Assembly: GCA_965203355.1 (NCBI GenBank)
Contig: OZ241889.1
Location: 2,208,001 to 2,272,000 of the forward strand
Direction: 5' to 3'
From: Candidatus Latescibacterota bacterium
Lineage (GTDB): Bacteria > Latescibacterota > UBA2968 > UBA8231
Length of the DNA stretch: 64,000 nt
Part shown: positions 1 through 5,910 of the stretch, piece by piece
Layout: every line of letters starts with the position of its first letter
Position numbering within the stretch: position 1 is the first letter of the stretch
Notes under the pieces: generated by a model
Seen by the model: only the letters and a program-made list of their open reading frames with translations
The model's database searches: none
What the model was told of the DNA's origin: nothing
Made by a program: the position numbers and the translations under genes

Positions 1-378
1 CGTGTCTTCCGGGTCTTTTTGCATTAAGTCAAAAAAGACCCGGAAAGCGATGCCAAATATCGTTGAAAAGATAGCGATACCAAAGTTCGTGATGATCGGG
101 GCAATCGTTTCGACAGCTTCGTCACTTGAGGAGAACTCAAAAAGCGACATCGCCAAGCTGACGAGAGTATATAAAAATCCAAGGTAATATAAGTTATCTC
201 CAACTTTACTGAGCTGAGATTGATGCTTTATATAATGATAGCACGCATAGACCAACATGATCGAGATCGGACAGGCAGTCACGAAAAACTGGCTCATGTC
301 CAGTAGCTTGAGAATTATGATCCCTGCTGCTCCTATCAGGGCAGCAATCATGAAAATGTTTGGATTCAATTTCGTCAT
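1..378 (-). CDS. Membrane protein with MotA/TolQ/ExbB-like TM signature (partial, runs off left edge)
   Basis: Not in the ORF track; translated by hand: MTKLNPNIFMIAALIGAAGIIILKLL...GDNLYYLGFLYTLVSLAMSLF...NFGIAIFSTIFGIAFRVFFDLMQKDPEDT. Open to base 1; its ATG overlaps the upstream TGA (ATGA, 375-378). Confidence 0.7.
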   Translation of the reverse strand, partial: MTKLNPNIFMIAALIGAAGIIILKLLDMSQFFVTACPISIMLVYACYHYIKHQSQLSKVGDNLYYLGFLYTLVSLAMSLFEFSSSDEAVETIAPIITNFGIAIFSTIFGIAFRVFFDLMQKDPEDT

Positions 379-1175
379 TCATTCATCCCGGAAGTTCTAA
401 GTACGCGCACTACTTGGCCTCCATGCTGAGAGAACCAAGACTGGAAGAATTTCAACAGAGGGCCACCGTCTCCCTGCTGCCGTTGCCGCCTTTGAATGAG
501 CCATAGTTCTATATCGACGCCCCGAAGATCGGGGTTTAAGCCGCGAGATTCATGGGTTTGCCGGAAGCGGCTGAAGTCTGGCGACCCTCGATAGAACGAA
601 CATACGTCACTATTTTGCATAAGATCTGAAATAACGATGAGACGCCGCGGAACGCTGCGCCGTTCGGTATCTTGGAAGTGCGTTAGAGAAACCGACTGAA
701 TAGACTCCATAATTGGCGACGATGGTGCTTCTTTTTCATCAAGCAGACTTTGCAGAACTTCTTCCATGGGCTGCCGGAATTTACGCTGCCAGTTTCGACT
801 AACTATTGCTTGGGATTGGATTAGCGGATCGACATCTTCTGGATCGCCGGGATTGCAAACCTTAATGATCGGCTCAAGGCTCTTTTCATGGGTGGATTCC
901 ACCGTAAAAAGGCTGATTTCGTGATTTTCTTTGACCGTATCTAACAGGTTCTTGATCTGAACCTTCAGATCGTCCTTAGTCTGAGTACTAAAGGAATCGG
1001 TGCGATCAAGTAAAAGGGCTGTAATTGAATACGGCCCCTCGGATCTGCAAAGAGTTGCGGGGTCCCGGACGATGGGCTCGGGTTTCAACAATACGAGAGC
1101 AACCACACCTCCGAGAACTAGGGCGATCATCGCCCCGCCTGCGATGTAGTTTACGTTTATGTATTTTGATGACAT
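375..1175 (-). CDS. Membrane-anchored VWA-like domain protein
   Basis: N-terminal TM helix; MIDAS-like LLDRTDS, SPIMESI and LIVISDLMQNS motifs. Likely start MSSKY at 1175 rather than 1268. Confidence 0.65.
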   Translation of the reverse strand: MSSKYINVNYIAGGAMIALVLGGVVALVLLKPEPIVRDPATLCRSEGPYSITALLLDRTDSFSTQTKDDLKVQIKNLLDTVKENHEISLFTVESTHEKSLEPIIKVCNPGDPEDVDPLIQSQAIVSRNWQRKFRQPMEEVLQSLLDEKEAPSSPIMESIQSVSLTHFQDTERRSVPRRLIVISDLMQNSDVCSFYRGSPDFSRFRQTHESRGLNPDLRGVDIELWLIQRRQRQQGDGGPLLKFFQSWFSQHGGQVVRVLRTSGMNE

Positions 1176-1206
1176 GACGGCTCTTTCCAATAGTTTGCAA
1201 CTGGGC

Positions 1207-2613
1207 TTATTCGGTTGATGCTGATAGGCGATGCCCTGCCAATTTTCGCAAATCCCTACAGACAGCATCGTATTCTTTTAACAGTTCCTTCTCGCCGTTA
1301 TCAACTCTTGCTCTCGTACCAGAAATGACCTCTTTAATTTCTTCGAGTTTCGGCAAATCCTCTGGCAAGGCCCTGTCTATTGGCGATAATTCTTTGATTT
1401 TCCATGGGTCATTGAAGCGGTCAGGTGCTTCTCCACCTCGTGTCTCACGGTTGATCGATCGGTAGCGTTTGAGCAAGCGATTTCCTATCTGCTCCAAGTC
1501 GTTTAGGTAATCCTCATATAATTTGATAACGTGCCTATGGCCGTCTAAGATCGAAGCGCGTTCCACTTCTAATCCCATGAGTCTTTGTATGATGCTGTTC
1601 AGTTTTGCGACAACTTCATTAAATATCCTTTCTAGTTCTTTTAAATGATTGTCATAAGCATCTTTGTAGTTTTTATACTCACCCTCATAGCGAAAAAACA
1701 CCTTTCCATAACCGGGATAGGAGTCGCCGTCCCATTTTATGCCATCAATAAAGCTAATAATTGCAAAAAGGAACCCCATACAGAACAGCATCCATGACTG
1801 GAACTCCCTTAGCCCCAATGGATTCTCGAGAAAAGCGGACATGGCGAGTTGTCCGCCTTCGTCGAGTATGGTTCCCGTTATTTCTCGATAGTGTGCAACC
1901 ATTAGGTTAAAGAAGAATGCAAAGACTACAAATGCAATTGCGGCGAGGATGCCCGCTGATTTTCTACTCCACTTAATATGATGACAGTTGGCAATAAGCC
2001 GCCCGAGTAAGAAAGCGACGCCGAGGTTGGCAAACGAAATAACAATGGCCTCAGTATAGGCACCGAATAGCCCCAGTTCGTTGCCCTTTGCCAGAAAGGA
2101 GGCGTTACCCAAGGTTTCAATGAGAAAGAGCACGGCGATAATACCTGAAGCAAATAACCCGTATCCCTCACGGTGCTTACTCGCCTCACGATCTATGTTA
2201 TTCTTCTTCTGAAAATCCTTCAAGCGATATTCTGCTTTTTTTAGCAGAGGTCGTCTTGCTCGCAAATCCGTAATAGCCTTTTCAGCCGCCTTCTTGAGTT
2301 TTTCTCTACCAATGCGAATTTCGCTATCAATAGAGTCATCGCGGAATGATGGGATGATCTTGATAAGACGCTTTCGGTCTGAAGTTAGTTGTATGTCACT
2401 TGTGTCCTTTGCTTTTGATTGATATTCTTCGATTTTCTCGACAATCTTCACTTCGGTTTTATCGAAGTCTGTACTGTCTAGCAAAGGCAGTCCCTGTTTC
2501 CCCGCTTCTATAGCTTCTTCCTCTATATGTAAATCGGCTGCTATCTTATTTGCGGAGATTTTCTCAAACAGATCAGTTGGCATCTCGTAGTTCTCCTTTA
2601 TGGGTTCGCTCAC
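1207..2613 (-). CDS. Coiled-coil protein with about 4 central TM helices, function unknown
   Basis: 468-aa ORF with charged helical N- and C-terminal regions flanking a hydrophobic core; low GC. Confidence 0.75.
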   Translation of the reverse strand: MSEPIKENYEMPTDLFEKISANKIAADLHIEEEAIEAGKQGLPLLDSTDFDKTEVKIVEKIEEYQSKAKDTSDIQLTSDRKRLIKIIPSFRDDSIDSEIRIGREKLKKAAEKAITDLRARRPLLKKAEYRLKDFQKKNNIDREASKHREGYGLFASGIIAVLFLIETLGNASFLAKGNELGLFGAYTEAIVISFANLGVAFLLGRLIANCHHIKWSRKSAGILAAIAFVVFAFFFNLMVAHYREITGTILDEGGQLAMSAFLENPLGLREFQSWMLFCMGFLFAIISFIDGIKWDGDSYPGYGKVFFRYEGEYKNYKDAYDNHLKELERIFNEVVAKLNSIIQRLMGLEVERASILDGHRHVIKLYEDYLNDLEQIGNRLLKRYRSINRETRGGEAPDRFNDPWKIKELSPIDRALPEDLPKLEEIKEVISGTRARVDNGEKELLKEYDAVCRDLRKLAGHRLSASTE

Positions 2614-2678
2614 TACCCAATGGCTTTTGATTTACCAGCGGGCATAAGGATGCAAAGACCCAGCCGCGGGCCGGGCCA

Positions 2679-2810
2679 TGTGTGCATCTCACAGGTTTTT
2701 TGGAGAAGTTCTGCCTATTCGCCGGGCTTCAGGGAGCTACCCTGTGCCGAATCAGGCTGTTTTATTTAACAGATAACCCGACGGTCGCGGGTACCTGCTT
2801 GATGCACACA
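2679..2810 (-). ncRNA. Putative structured RNA (multi-stem leader or small RNA)
   Basis: Closing stem TGTGTGCATC-aag-CAGGT / ACCTG-tga-GATGCACACA encloses three hairpins; the 5' end coincides with the predicted +1. Confidence 0.5.
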
Positions 2811-2816
2811 GAGAAC

Positions 2817-2846
2817 AATATATAAACCAAAAACCTTCTTTGTCAA
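2817..2846 (-). promoter_or_regulatory. Sigma70-type promoter for the island operon
   Basis: TTGACA (2846-2841), 18-nt spacer, TATATT (2822-2817). Confidence 0.6.
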
Positions 2847-2872
2847 AAAATTATTTGTTCTCGGATGCGGTC

Positions 2873-3067
2873 GGTGAGGTGATGGCGTTGGATGCGGCCC
2901 GTTCAACGTATATGGGTCGGCCGACAAGATCGTGCTGCTGGGGGTGGAGGACTTGGTCGTGGTGGATACTGAAGACGCGCTGCTGGTGTGCGCGAAAGGG
3001 GGCGGCGCAAAAGGTGAAAGACGCGGTGGACTATCTCCGAGAGCAGCGGCGCGAGAAGTACCTCTAG
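2873..3067 (+). pseudogene. manC: 3' fragment of mannose-1-phosphate guanylyltransferase, frameshifted
   Basis: Joining frames gives GEVMALDA...DKIVLLGVEDLVVVDTEDALLVCAKGAAQKVKDAVDYLREQRREKYL*, typical of the ManC C-terminus; no 5' part present. Confidence 0.7.
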
Positions 3068-3069
3068 GT

Positions 3070-3828
3070 TCACTCCACGTCGAGTATATAACGCGCTAGC
3101 GGCGAGAGCCGTTGGGCCGTTTGTGGCCGCAGGTATTCGCGCTGGTTGGTCTGCTGGGGGTGCTCGCGGGCGATAAAGGCGCAGTGCAAGGTGCGGCGGG
3201 GCCTGCTGCTGTCGTTGCGATAGGCGCTGTGCCACAGGCTGCCGTTGAATACGGCGACCGAGCCAGCGCGGCCCGTTAGCTGCACTTGCTCGGGGTGATC
3301 GGCCAAGCGATCGGCTATGTAGTCGGTGATTCTGCCGGGTTTGCGGTGGCTGCCGGGGACGCAGCGGGTCGCGCCATTGGCCGCGGTGAAATCGTCGAGC
3401 ATCCACACCGAGTTGACGACGTGATACAGCCCGCCGGGCCCGGTGGGTTGCCCCCAATCGGCGTGCAGGATCTGCAAGCCGCTGCCGGGCAGTGGATCGT
3501 GTCCGTTGAGCGAGTGTAGCTTAAACGGACGCTGCAAGACGTGAAAGACCGCTGTCAGCAGGGCGGGCTGTAGATACACCGCGTCGAAAACCGTTCCCTT
3601 GTTGACCAAATCGGCGAGGCGGCGGACGCCCTCCATCTGGGCCACCTCAGTGCCGGCTTGGTTGCCCTCGCGGGCAAAGATCGCGTCAAAAGCATGGCGC
3701 AACTCGGCCAGCCACTCGGGGGCTATGACCTCTTCCAAGATGGTGAAACCGCTGGTGTCTAGCGCGCTGTATTGCGCGGGCGTCAGGGGTTGGGGGACGA
3801 ACCCCCGTTGCAACAGTTCGCGGTCCAA
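3070..3828 (-). CDS. Phytanoyl-CoA dioxygenase (PhyH) family Fe/2OG oxygenase
   Basis: HADW (HxD), NGAT..VPGSH and distal WH motifs. Confidence 0.88.
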   Translation of the reverse strand: MDRELLQRGFVPQPLTPAQYSALDTSGFTILEEVIAPEWLAELRHAFDAIFAREGNQAGTEVAQMEGVRRLADLVNKGTVFDAVYLQPALLTAVFHVLQRPFKLHSLNGHDPLPGSGLQILHADWGQPTGPGGLYHVVNSVWMLDDFTAANGATRCVPGSHRKPGRITDYIADRLADHPEQVQLTGRAGSVAVFNGSLWHSAYRNDSSRPRRTLHCAFIAREHPQQTNQREYLRPQTAQRLSPLARYILDVE

Positions 3829-3845
3829 AGAGAATGCTCCCTCGT

Positions 3846-5012
3846 TTAGCTGTCAGCTTGTTGTTGCGCGAATTCGCAGATGGCGGTCACGCCGCGGCAG
3901 ATGTGCTCTTCGGAAGCGGCGATGGAGATGCGCACGTGGTCGCGGCACATCTGGCCGAAGGTGCTGCCTGGAGCCACGGCCACGCGCTTTTCTTTGAGCA
4001 GCCGGACGGCGAATTCGCTGGAGTTCATGCCGGCCGCGGCAATGTCGATCATCAGGTAGATTGCCCCGCCTGGCGTGTAGCGGTACAAGCCGTATTCCCG
4101 CAGGACATCGAGGGCTGTGTCGCGGCGGCGGGCATAAGCGCGGCACATGGTGTCCACGTCGTCTTGCGGGCCGTCGAGCGCGTCGGCTGACGCGAGCTGG
4201 GAAAAGCCCGTGCCGCACGAGACAAAAGGCTCTTGTAGCTTGGCGGCCAATTCGATGTACTTGGGATTGGCGCGGGTAAAGCCCACTCGGTAGCCGGTCA
4301 TGGCGTAGCTTTTGGACATGCCAGAGACGACGATGGCGCGTCCGTCGGCGTCGTGCGGCAGCGCGCTCTGGTGCGGTTGGTCGAAGACGATCTGACCGTA
4401 GATCTCGTCGGAAAGCACCCACAAGTCGTGGCGCTGGGCCAAGTCCATGAGCCGGCGCATCAGGGCCTCGTCGTACACTTGGCCGGTAGGGTTGGAGGGC
4501 GTGCAGAGGAGGAGGAGTTTGGTGCGCGGACTGACTCGACGCTCGATCTCGTCAAGGTCGGGCAAGAAGTGGTTTTCCGCCCGCAAATTGTAAAAGACGG
4601 GCTGGCCGTGGACGATGGAGACGGCCATCTCGTAGTTGGGCCAACCGGGGTCGGGCAACAGAACCTCGTCGCCCGGTTCGAGCAGGGCGAGGAATGCGGT
4701 CGCTACGCTCATGACCGCCCCGGGCGTGACGAGGATGTTTTCGCTGGTGGTCGGCACGCCGGTGCGGCGCTCGAAGTAGCGCGCGGCGGCGGCGCGCAAC
4801 GCATCGACGCCAGCGTTGGGGACGTACTTGGTGTGGCCGGTGTGCGCGTAGCGACAGGTGGCTTCGACAATGGACGCTGGCGTGGCAAAATCGGGTTGAC
4901 CGACTTCGAGATGGATGACCTCGCCGGTCTTTTCGACGGCCCAGGCCAAGTCCATGATCGCGCGGATGCCCGAGCGGGGAAGGGCGGCGGGGATGCGGGC
5001 AAAAGGCTTCAT
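3846..5012 (-). CDS. PLP-dependent aminotransferase class I/II (aspartate aminotransferase-like)
   Basis: GQPDF, PSNPTG, SDEIY and SKSYAMTGYRVG motifs; start MKPF at 5012 has an ATGA overlap with the upstream gene. Confidence 0.92.
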   Translation of the reverse strand: MKPFARIPAALPRSGIRAIMDLAWAVEKTGEVIHLEVGQPDFATPASIVEATCRYAHTGHTKYVPNAGVDALRAAAARYFERRTGVPTTSENILVTPGAVMSVATAFLALLEPGDEVLLPDPGWPNYEMAVSIVHGQPVFYNLRAENHFLPDLDEIERRVSPRTKLLLLCTPSNPTGQVYDEALMRRLMDLAQRHDLWVLSDEIYGQIVFDQPHQSALPHDADGRAIVVSGMSKSYAMTGYRVGFTRANPKYIELAAKLQEPFVSCGTGFSQLASADALDGPQDDVDTMCRAYARRRDTALDVLREYGLYRYTPGGAIYLMIDIAAAGMNSSEFAVRLLKEKRVAVAPGSTFGQMCRDHVRISIAASEEHICRGVTAICEFAQQQADS

Positions 5013-5806
5013 CGGAGGTGGATGCCCGGGCCGGTCGCGCCGATCATCTGCACGGTGTTGTATATGGAGGCGGGCGTCGAGGCGCCAGTGACGCCGGTGA
5101 TGCCTTCGGTGCGCGCGACCTTGAGGTCGAGGCCCGGGCCTTGGGCATGGATTTCGACGATGGCTTCGCTCCACTGCGGGCTTACCAACAACAGCGAATG
5201 GGTGCGGTCGAAGCCGAGGCCAGCATACGCGATGGCTGCGTGGGTGTTGACGTTGCGCGGGAAGAGCGGGCAGATGCCGCGCGTCGGGCCATCGTAGAGG
5301 ACCGTTTCTTCTTTAATGTCGTCAGGGTCGAGGCCGGCGGCCGCGCAATCGACGTTGTGTGGCGGCTTTTTCATCACCACCTCCACCGACTCCCACACGT
5401 CGCGGTTTTCCAACAGCGCGTCCATGCCGACCACGCCTCCGTGCGGGACAAAGGCGCGGGTGCCAGCGCGGCGGGTCGTCTCCTCAATGGTGGCTTCGAC
5501 GGCGCGGTCGGCGAGGGCGGTCACCGAGATGAACATGTAGTTGGTTTTTTCGAGAATCGTCTGGCCCCACTGGCGGGTGACGTCCGGGTGGGCCATCTCG
5601 ACGACGAGGTCGGGTTGCCGCGATTCAAAGTCGCTCAAATCCGCTAGGCCGAGGTCGGCGGGGAAGTTTTGCAAGGCCGCGGCCATTTGATCGTGGACGA
5701 AGACGACCTCCATGCCGTTGTCTGCGTCGGCGTCTATCATCTTGTGGACCGCTTGGCCGATCTGGCCGTAGCCGATTAGGCCGATGCGAGTCAATTGTTG
5801 GCGCAT
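5009..5806 (-). CDS. L-aspartate dehydrogenase (NadX/DUF108)-like oxidoreductase
   Basis: Rossmann IGYGQIG, GGVVGMD and FPRNVN motifs; start MRQQL at 5806 with GAGGAG RBS. Confidence 0.75.
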   Translation of the reverse strand: MRQQLTRIGLIGYGQIGQAVHKMIDADADNGMEVVFVHDQMAAALQNFPADLGLADLSDFESRQPDLVVEMAHPDVTRQWGQTILEKTNYMFISVTALADRAVEATIEETTRRAGTRAFVPHGGVVGMDALLENRDVWESVEVVMKKPPHNVDCAAAGLDPDDIKEETVLYDGPTRGICPLFPRNVNTHAAIAYAGLGFDRTHSLLLVSPQWSEAIVEIHAQGPGLDLKVARTEGITGVTGASTPASIYNTVQMIGATGPGIHLR

Positions 5807-5910
5807 AGTTTTGCTCCTCAAAACAAGGTGAAGGCGGAAGTAGCGAATATAGGCACTCGCCAAGGATATGGCGAACAAAGGGCGCGTCGAATCAAAGCTA
5901 TGGTGTTTGC

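Follow-up and report, generated by a model that had tools for sequence, protein, structure and literature searches.

A conserved structured RNA with two mutually exclusive folds, a probable cis-acting leader related to sRNA-Xcc1, at the edge of a low-GC island of Latescibacterota

The window analysed here is a stretch of 64,000 nucleotides (nt) from a Candidatus Latescibacterota bacterium (assembly GCA_965203355.1, contig OZ241889.1, positions 2,208,001 to 2,272,000 of the forward strand). Its minus strand, on which all features of the RNA are read, encodes a structured RNA, here called the leader RNA, between a sigma-70-type promoter and a series of membrane-protein genes (A, B, C, and, in the complete island, D). 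The guanine–cytosine (GC) content changes at about 2860 from ~63% to 42–48%, hence the leader RNA is the first thing inside a low-GC island. It is confirmed below as a real, conserved, and strongly supported structured RNA; it probably forms the 5' end of the operon messenger RNA (mRNA) and acts in cis through two exclusive folds; and its core is related to that of sRNA-Xcc1 (Rfam family RF02221), a proteobacterial RNA that was first cloned from Xanthomonas campestris and is carried by integron cassettes, prophages, and genomic islands. The island runs off the window; its far end and the copy number were read from the two closest loci, L001 and L002, whose record titles name metagenome-assembled genomes (MAGs) of Latescibacterota. 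The features of the locus are as follows.

2817..2846, minus: sigma-70-type promoter, 11 of 12 consensus letters; the -35/-10 pair lies at equal distance from helix P1 in most of 40 members of the RNA family (by eye)
2801..2810, minus: P1 5' strand, UGUGUGCAUC; 9/9 modelled pairs changed on both sides, 98.7% of cells paired in 99 members
2793..2797, minus: P1b 5' strand, CAGGU; from the fold, with compensated changes among paralogous copies seen by eye
2787..2791, minus: P2 5' arm, CCCGC; proposed anti-switch strand, competing with 2678-2670 for GUCGGG
2774..2782, minus: GUCGGGUUA, P2 3' arm and Px 5' strand; aligns to the closing stem of sRNA-Xcc1
2710..2773, minus: core domain (P3, internal loop, P3a, and P4); covariation, loop letters nearly invariant
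2697..2709, minus: pyrimidine-rich linker, AACUUCUCCAAAA; CUUCYC-like consensus in most members
2679..2696, minus: 3' strands of P1b (ACCUG, 2696-2692) and P1 (GAUGCACACA, 2688-2679), with a UGA internal loop between them
2670..2678, minus: UGGCCCGGC, Px 3' strand, overlapping the P5 5' arm; pair 94-277 covaries
2657..2677, minus: P5, GC-rich hairpin GGCCCGGCC-CGC-GGCUGGGUC, then UCUUUGC; fold and covariation
2584..2656, minus: rest of the 5' untranslated region, with Shine-Dalgarno sequence AAGGAG at 2598-2593; aligns with L001 and L002
1207..2583, minus: gene A, 458 amino acids (aa), membrane and coiled-coil protein; first gene after the leader, no Pfam family
375..1268, minus: gene B, 297 aa, without a family; synteny with gene A kept in 44 of 45 loci
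1..378, minus: gene C, N-terminal 126 aa, running off the window; the L001 orthologue has 421 aa and a weak ZorA/MotA-like match
2860..3067, plus: decayed, frameshifted 3' fragment of a manC-like (mannose-1-phosphate guanylyltransferase) gene, marking the island edge

The promoter consists of TTGACA (2846-2841), an 18-nt spacer, and TATATT (2822-2817), and is the sole promoter-like site within 2300-3300. Read with a 16-nt spacer, the -10 box becomes TATATA (2824-2819), which agrees by eye with the spacing in the L001 and L002 orthologues. The predicted transcript start lies at about 2812-2810, ~7 nt after the -10 box, exactly at the closing stem P1, as the original prediction had placed it. 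Here, the two 10-nt strands of P1 pair perfectly, and inside them CAGGU pairs with ACCUG (P1b). The minimum free energy (MFE) of the 176-nt leader stretch is -73.5 kcal/mol, vs. -52.5 +/- 4.2 kcal/mol for 200 shuffles (z = -5.04), none of which folds as well; the comparative data given below are far stronger support for the fold. Pairs of G with U are frequent on the minus strand only (GU in 36 of 99 members at pair 100-190, UG in 62 of 99 at pair 102-188). Since the promoter is also on that strand, the structure is read as a minus-strand RNA.

The core of the window copy is formed by P3 (UCUGUU/GGCAGA), P3a (GCC/GGC), and P4 (GGC-A-CAGGG-UAGCU-CCCUG-AA-GCC), with an internal loop, AAAUAAAACA opposite GAAUA, that is a variant of the family consensus GAAUAcAAnA opposite GAAUA. 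The features named originally (the promoter, a 10+5-bp closing stem, the stems ACCCG/CGGGT, CTGTT/AACAG, and CAGGG/CCCTG, and a GC hairpin followed by TCTTT, identified here as P5) are all present on the minus strand; with the promoter, the stems, and the fold stability confirmed, the observation stands, including the bias of G-U pairs toward this strand. The inner pairings fared unevenly: CAGGG/CCCTG is conserved, whereas CTGTT/AACAG and GCCT-ATTCG/CGAAT-AGGC, the latter seen as the base of a 45-nt hairpin, are both possible in the window copy but are not conserved pairings, the family pairing CUGUU with GGCAG (P3).

The RNA belongs to a family with members of about 155–165 nt. A full-length covariance model built from eight copies (R1) yields ~194 matches, of which nearly all span the full length; they come from 60 of 150 sampled Latescibacterota genomes (phylum by record titles), at 1–14 copies per genome; weak matches that retain the core letters are seen in 3 of 151 sampled Acidobacteriota genomes. 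An exact 28-mer of the core has no match in the JGI metagenomes, while a degenerate 28-letter core pattern retrieves 15 metagenome loci, 13 of them confirmed by R1. Identity of the leader RNA to L001 and L002 is 87–89%, vs. only 66–68% for protein A, with three fully compensated changes of P1 in L001; the extra copies in the L001 and L002 genomes precede quite different genes. Rfam 15 contains no relevant family at the gathering score, either for the whole window or for 20 members, and a search of 2550-2900 (351 nt) at E <= 10 returns nothing relevant; literature searches on Latescibacter riboswitches and RNA motifs returned no description of the RNA. The Rfam scan, suggested originally as a check, was nevertheless productive, as an E-value scan of another 20 members provided the sRNA-Xcc1 lead. 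The family thus adds ~200 copies of a well-supported RNA, undetected by Rfam 15 at gathering, from a little-studied phylum, with rare members in Acidobacteriota and metagenomes.

Covariation among related leaders, another of the checks suggested, was assessed on 99 members aligned to R1, with pairs counted for P1, Px, P3, and P4. Standard pairs occupy 96.1% of cells, vs. 78.6% in column shuffles and 31–51% for slid partners; 27 of 35 pairs changed on both sides, and none of 500 shuffles reaches any of these measures. Apart from P1, two-sided changes are observed for 5/6 pairs of P3 (UCUGYU/GGCAGR), 3/3 of P4a, and 5/5 of P4b; the conserved pairs in the long-hairpin region are GCC/GGC, GGC/GCC, and nnGGG/CCCnn.

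Helix Px, which the original reading had missed, is long-range and pairs GUCGGGUNN (2782-2774) with NNGCCCGGC (2678-2670). Both strands are invariant segments with a double role, the former as the 3' arm of hairpin P2 (ACCCG/CGGGT), and the latter, directly 3' of P1, as the 5' arm of P5. Px was found via a weak RF02221 alignment; when it was then counted on the R1 alignment, fitted without regard to this helix, 94.4% of its cells proved to be paired. Its variable pair 94-277 is CG in 40 members, AU in 24, UG in 15, GC in 4, GU in 4, and UA in 2; the second variable pair is GC in 31, AU in 30, UA in 12, GU in 3, and UG in 1; and these two pairs show 34 and 43 two-sided changes, respectively. 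The lower helix of P5 is 90.9% paired, with 4/5 pairs changed on both sides, and column 277 covaries both with its Px partner and with column 336 in P5. In P2, 92.6% of cells are paired, but the letters hardly vary, and covariation can therefore neither support nor refute this hairpin. Since Px shares the GUCGGG segment with P2 and its other strand with P5, the two arrangements are mutually exclusive; since Px and P5 both covary, with one column following its partner in each, both states have been maintained by selection. A column covarying in both folds is the signature of a switch. For an RNA of unknown function it is uncommon that both states of a conformational switch are visible by covariation alone.

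The alignment that led to Px is a weak RF02221 match of one member (29.7 bits), in which the closing stem of sRNA-Xcc1 falls onto the Px segments. The best genome-wide RF02221 matches in two genomes (G043 and G070) are leader family members with 29.7, 28.3, and 22.2 bits, the gathering score being 53, and the window copy has no RF02221 match at gathering nor, in the 351-nt search, at E <= 10; being below threshold, the leader family is not a member of RF02221 in the Rfam sense. RF02221 itself passes threshold in 24 of 151 sampled Pseudomonadota genomes, with up to six copies each. In the reverse direction, a core model closed by Px and built only from 41 leader family members (R2) recovers 11 of 12 true sRNA-Xcc1 RNAs as the top match at the exact place (E from 1.5e-5 to 0.32; 9 of the 12 at E <= 0.051 in 34 kb), whereas the full-length R1 finds none of the true loci and yields only noise. 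Because the core model finds these RNAs, the leader family is considered an enlarged relative of sRNA-Xcc1, and we class it with the sRNA-Xcc1 kind, as a new variant that is larger and has two states.

The true sRNA-Xcc1 RNAs end 20–53 nt before a co-directional open reading frame (ORF) in 10 of 12 loci (L175–L186). Their 3' half (the second hairpin and UUUUCGG) is complementary to the ribosome-binding region of this ORF, CCGAAAAGGAG plus spacer, and the letters of the pairing change together in L178, L184, L185, and L186. These features point to translational control in cis by canonical sRNA-Xcc1 rather than to the annotated action in trans. Four of the 12 ORFs encode antirepressor-like proteins (P22_AR/Bro-N). 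Similar settings appear in reports on sRNA-Xcc1: it precedes symE in the Xanthomonas integron cassette that is most widespread (bioRxiv 10.1101/2025.06.18.660453), Xylella has seven copies, five of them in one genomic island (PMC12189769), and in APSE phages a copy precedes the gene of an ORF6N protein (bioRxiv 10.1101/2020.03.17.996009).

The genes that follow the leader RNA are mostly oriented with it: in 38 of 40 loci, several of which are orthologous to each other, the longest ORF found within 1.5 kb downstream has the direction of the RNA. The GC content of the first 1 kb downstream is 51.6%, vs. 57.2% upstream, and is lower in 30 of 42 loci (Wilcoxon p = 9e-5). The genes themselves are very diverse, and include Mrr-like and HNH nucleases, a MunI-type restriction enzyme, a dynamin-like GTPase, and the A-B-C-D membrane set; WD40, LRR, fn3, and NHL repeat proteins, subtilases, leishmanolysin-like peptidases, and CsgG-like proteins; CAAX-type proteases, a superinfection-immunity protein, a LuxR-type regulator, and many proteins of no family. 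Among the 45 loci with gene A, just 2 carry the RNA. It is a portable leader; that it is a component of the A-B-C-D system is rejected by the same count. A role specific to defence is likewise rejected, and the suggestion of a defence non-coding RNA is not supported as such, as PADLOC matches (E <= 1e-5) are found for only 4 of 61 downstream proteins.

We propose that the leader RNA is a cis-acting two-state leader, that is, a structured 5' mRNA end whose two exclusive folds control the downstream genes, and assign a probability of about 0.6 to this reading, which includes window positions 2812-2657 (minus strand) as a ~155-nt leader at the 5' end of the operon mRNA. The RNA family, the helices, the exclusive folds, the promoter position, the co-orientation, and the core kinship with sRNA-Xcc1 enter this estimate as observations; the action in cis, the dependence of the switch on a signal, and the choice of the ON fold enter it as inferences. 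Transcription would start from the leader's own sigma-70 promoter, and the first transcribed bases would form P1. The conserved heart, which sRNA-Xcc1 RNAs share, is the domain closed by Px, with P3, the nearly invariant loop GAAUAMAAYA/GAAUA, and hairpin P4. In the first fold, Px forms and closes the core; in the second, GUCGGG is taken by the upstream CCCGC (P2), and the freed CCCGGC forms P5. A signal that stabilizes the core, a small molecule or a protein, would shift the balance between the folds, and this balance would set the transcription or translation that reaches the A-B-C-D membrane-protein operon of the 5-kb low-GC island.

The output probably differs among members. Of 64 non-redundant members, 16 have between P3 and Px a strand with complementarity (z < -2) to a site downstream, which often lies just after P5, resembles the 5' strand of P1/P1b, and contains a Shine-Dalgarno sequence and a start codon; in these 16, the output is probably translational. 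For the window operon, the output might involve RNA stability, access of Rho, or a termination that needs no U-tract. The original reading as a novel cis-regulatory leader with an attenuator is broadly right, with two corrections, one to the fold and the other the existence of a known, poorly understood relative: the leader part holds (fixed promoter distance, co-directional genes in 38 of 40 loci, and exclusive covarying helices), while the attenuator is not a canonical terminator and the RNA is not wholly novel.

Several observations weigh against the two-state leader. Since P2 never varies, complementarity is the sole argument for it. P1 and Px cross, so that both together would make a pseudoknot, and a nested fold of the window copy forced to hold Px is 18.7 kcal/mol weaker than the MFE fold (-53.0 vs. 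-71.7 kcal/mol). P5 as a standard intrinsic terminator is not supported: at least five U in the next 10 nt are seen in only 17 of 99 members, the mean number of U after P5 is 2.57, at the level of the background (2.42), and the window has UCUUUGCAUC. In contrast to known riboswitch leaders, the candidate terminator mostly lacks a U-tract, and the core-closing helix crosses P1. The linker of the window copy pairs with its downstream region no better than shuffles do (z = +0.62), and masking of the Shine-Dalgarno sequence of the window operon by the linker is not supported, though it holds for other members. The start, end, and read-through of the transcript are predictions; the 10 sequencing runs listed as containing this DNA or a part of it include none of RNA. 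Finally, many of the 40–99 loci are mutual orthologues, so that the counts overstate the number of independent events.

The same observations bear on the other explanations. Instead of a leader, the stretch from the promoter to P5 (~155 nt) might be a free-standing gene of a trans-acting small RNA that acts on other mRNAs or binds a protein, the next gene merely travelling along. This would agree with the strong promoter of its own, the stable 3' hairpin, the several copies per genome, and the window copy's lack of significant pairing with its own downstream region. It also fits the description of sRNA-Xcc1 as a discrete 88-nt RNA with a single Northern band of ~100 nt (PMC2996969), a further point against a cis-acting leader; a leader yielding a stable fragment, however, would give an identical band. 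We nevertheless consider a trans-acting RNA unlikely, as 38 of 40 loci have a downstream gene of the same direction, 82 of 99 members lack a U-tract after P5, and in 16 of 64 members as well as in the canonical sRNA-Xcc1 loci the 3' strand is complementary to the ribosome-binding site of the next gene, with pairing that co-varies by locus; besides, P1 varies by copy while the core is constant, so that no constant seed for trans pairing is evident. The position at the transcript start of low-GC genes, the trailing hairpin, the very diverse cargo, and the occurrence in islands and in an IS1-like composite would also suit an RNA that acts by processive antitermination or anti-silencing, modifying RNA polymerase through foreign low-GC cargo. 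HK022 put and the Bacillus EAR RNAs are the antitermination models for comparison, and no similarity to either is seen in the Rfam searches. Many cargo units are single short genes, and antitermination leaves unexplained both the conservation of the two exclusive helices and the pairing with ribosome-binding sites in many members and in the canonical relatives; it is quite improbable.

Two further explanations deny the stretch a regulatory RNA. As a DNA-level element, it would be a recombination or attachment site, or a repeat similar to a miniature inverted-repeat transposable element (MITE), that marks the edge of a mobile cassette. Indeed, it lies exactly at the island edge beside the duplicated manC 3' end, partial copies of the RNA 3' part occur at or near the ends of other islets, and four 100% identical copies in genome G070 lie in a 2.77-kb repeat with an IS1-like transposase. 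Here, however, the repeat unit is the whole 2.77-kb element and not the RNA; the P1 sequence varies with its pairing kept, contrary to inverted repeats that are bound by a transposase; only one strand is rich in G-U pairs; and the promoter is not part of the repeat but keeps a fixed distance from it. A site of this kind is very improbable, and the MITE or repetitive extragenic palindrome named originally as an alternative is at odds with 1–14 copies per genome whose terminal stem differs between copies. The last explanation, also raised originally, is a retron msr-msd RNA copied by a reverse transcriptase (RT) into multicopy single-stranded DNA. The terminal inverted repeats (P1, 10 bp, covarying) enclose short stems and one longer hairpin, as in retrons, and the RNA heads the island operon, but such repeats are not retron-specific. 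No gene matching the RT family is found in the complete L001 and L002 islands (the RNA and four or five genes), although a look for an RT further left had been suggested originally, nor among ~100 downstream ORFs scanned against Pfam; PF00078 has no matches in the closest complete genomes, G001 and G002, with five and three RNA copies, respectively, while the same search was positive for 3 of the 14 genomes used as controls. Immediately 3' of the 5' repeat stands a G in the window, but an A in L002 and a C in L001, hence there is no conserved priming G; the window has no Rfam msr match; and the cargo genes are unrelated to retron effectors. For close relatives the retron reading is refuted, and its overall probability is close to nil, which removes a false lead from the annotation of the island. 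The two-state cis-acting leader is retained as the preferred reading.

A single RT, a fragment, was seen near a copy of the leader RNA: in G090:C10, a partial RT match at 74245-74526 (model positions 42-130) is followed directly downstream by the copy at 73891-74067 (minus strand).

The complete island, as seen in L001, is ~5 kb long and contains the RNA, genes A, B, C, and D, and a small ORF; neither an RT nor an integrase is found in the complete L001 and L002 islands with Pfam and PADLOC. In both loci an intact gene stands at the far island end, its 3' end forming a direct repeat with the manC fragment; the two L002 repeats (view 41-225 and 5629-5813) are 185 nt long and 96.8% identical. 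These repeats look like those of a site-specific insertion in the 3' end of a manC-like gene, though the island has no integrase. Gene A matches 44 protein clusters, none of which has a recorded Pfam domain or an informative name. The 45 loci with gene A relatives in public genomes belong to MAGs titled Latescibacterota, orders of Acidobacteriota, and Alphaproteobacteria; gene B is retained in 44 of the loci, C in 23, and D in 12. PADLOC gives weak matches for C and D, ZorA/MotA-like (E 1e-4) and ZorB/MotB-like (E 6e-5), respectively, and A-B-C(-D), at 1-2583 (minus strand) in the window and at L001:9968-14379, may be an undescribed stator-like membrane system. Gene C of L002 (view 3404-4241) has three extra tandem copies of a stretch that is single in L001 (150 nt aligned, starts 279 nt apart), which suggests a repeat expansion in the coiled-coil part.

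Other rearrangements involve the RNA itself. In the G070 element (L089:3539-6306), the leader RNA is accompanied by a lysine-rich ORF of 71 aa, a gene of 210 aa without a family, and the IS1-like DDE transposase. Partial 3' copies of the RNA (the P1 3' strand and CCCGGC) are found at L054 view 4460-4510, L055 view 3659-3693, and L058 view 111-165. Two islets have one in inverted orientation at their far end, and in a third case the partial copy is direct and precedes another copy by ~280 nt. They share P1 letters with the nearby full copy, and a common 57-nt element containing a hairpin and a T-run adjoins each of them; they may record rearrangements within the RNA gene.

With two-state leaders and riboswitches, the leader family shares a covarying multi-helix core, an invariant loop, exclusive helices that share a strand, the location at the mRNA 5' end, the many copies before unrelated genes, and output parts that differ between members; no riboswitch family described in Rfam matches it. 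Tentatively, the core that the leader family shares with sRNA-Xcc1 (Px, P3, and the GAAUACAAUA/GAAUA loop) might serve as the sensor in a riboswitch class not yet described or in a dedicated protein–RNA switch. If so, it would govern accessory and mobile genes across at least three phyla, among them genes for SymE toxins, prophage antirepressor-like proteins, restriction enzymes, secreted proteases, and repeat proteins. The annotation of sRNA-Xcc1 as a trans-acting small RNA, now 15 years old, would give way to that of a cis leader, and the Latescibacterota form would be its elaborated two-state version. Were the core to bind a metabolite or an infection or stress signal, a single input would control many horizontally acquired genes.

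The closest known system is sRNA-Xcc1 itself. Its closing helix, GNCGGGNNN/NNNCCCGNC, is matched by Px: the letters are GNCGGG with CCCGGC, followed by an ACCC tail. In the inner helix, the loop (G)AAUACAAUA is opposite GAAUA; the sRNA-Xcc1 loop, AUACAAUA opposite GAA(UA), aligns by column with the GAAUAMAAYA/GAAUA loop of the leader family. Both RNAs occur in several copies per genome, just upstream of a co-directional accessory or mobile gene. They differ in distribution, the leader family being found in Latescibacterota and rarely in Acidobacteriota, and sRNA-Xcc1 in Proteobacteria; and in size, sRNA-Xcc1 having ~85–90 nt and the leader family about twice as many. A P4 domain of ~35 nt replaces the short CCC-loop-GGG (tetraloop) hairpin of sRNA-Xcc1 (33 nt vs. 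3 in the model), and the second hairpin that sRNA-Xcc1 has before its closing strand sets the leader family apart by size and architecture. Finally, the leader family adds the outer P1 at the transcript start, the CCCGC competitor (P2), and P5 overlapping the closing helix, which together give it its two-state design. This relationship ties the leader family to a widespread mobile-element RNA and offers a testable mechanism of control in cis for both.

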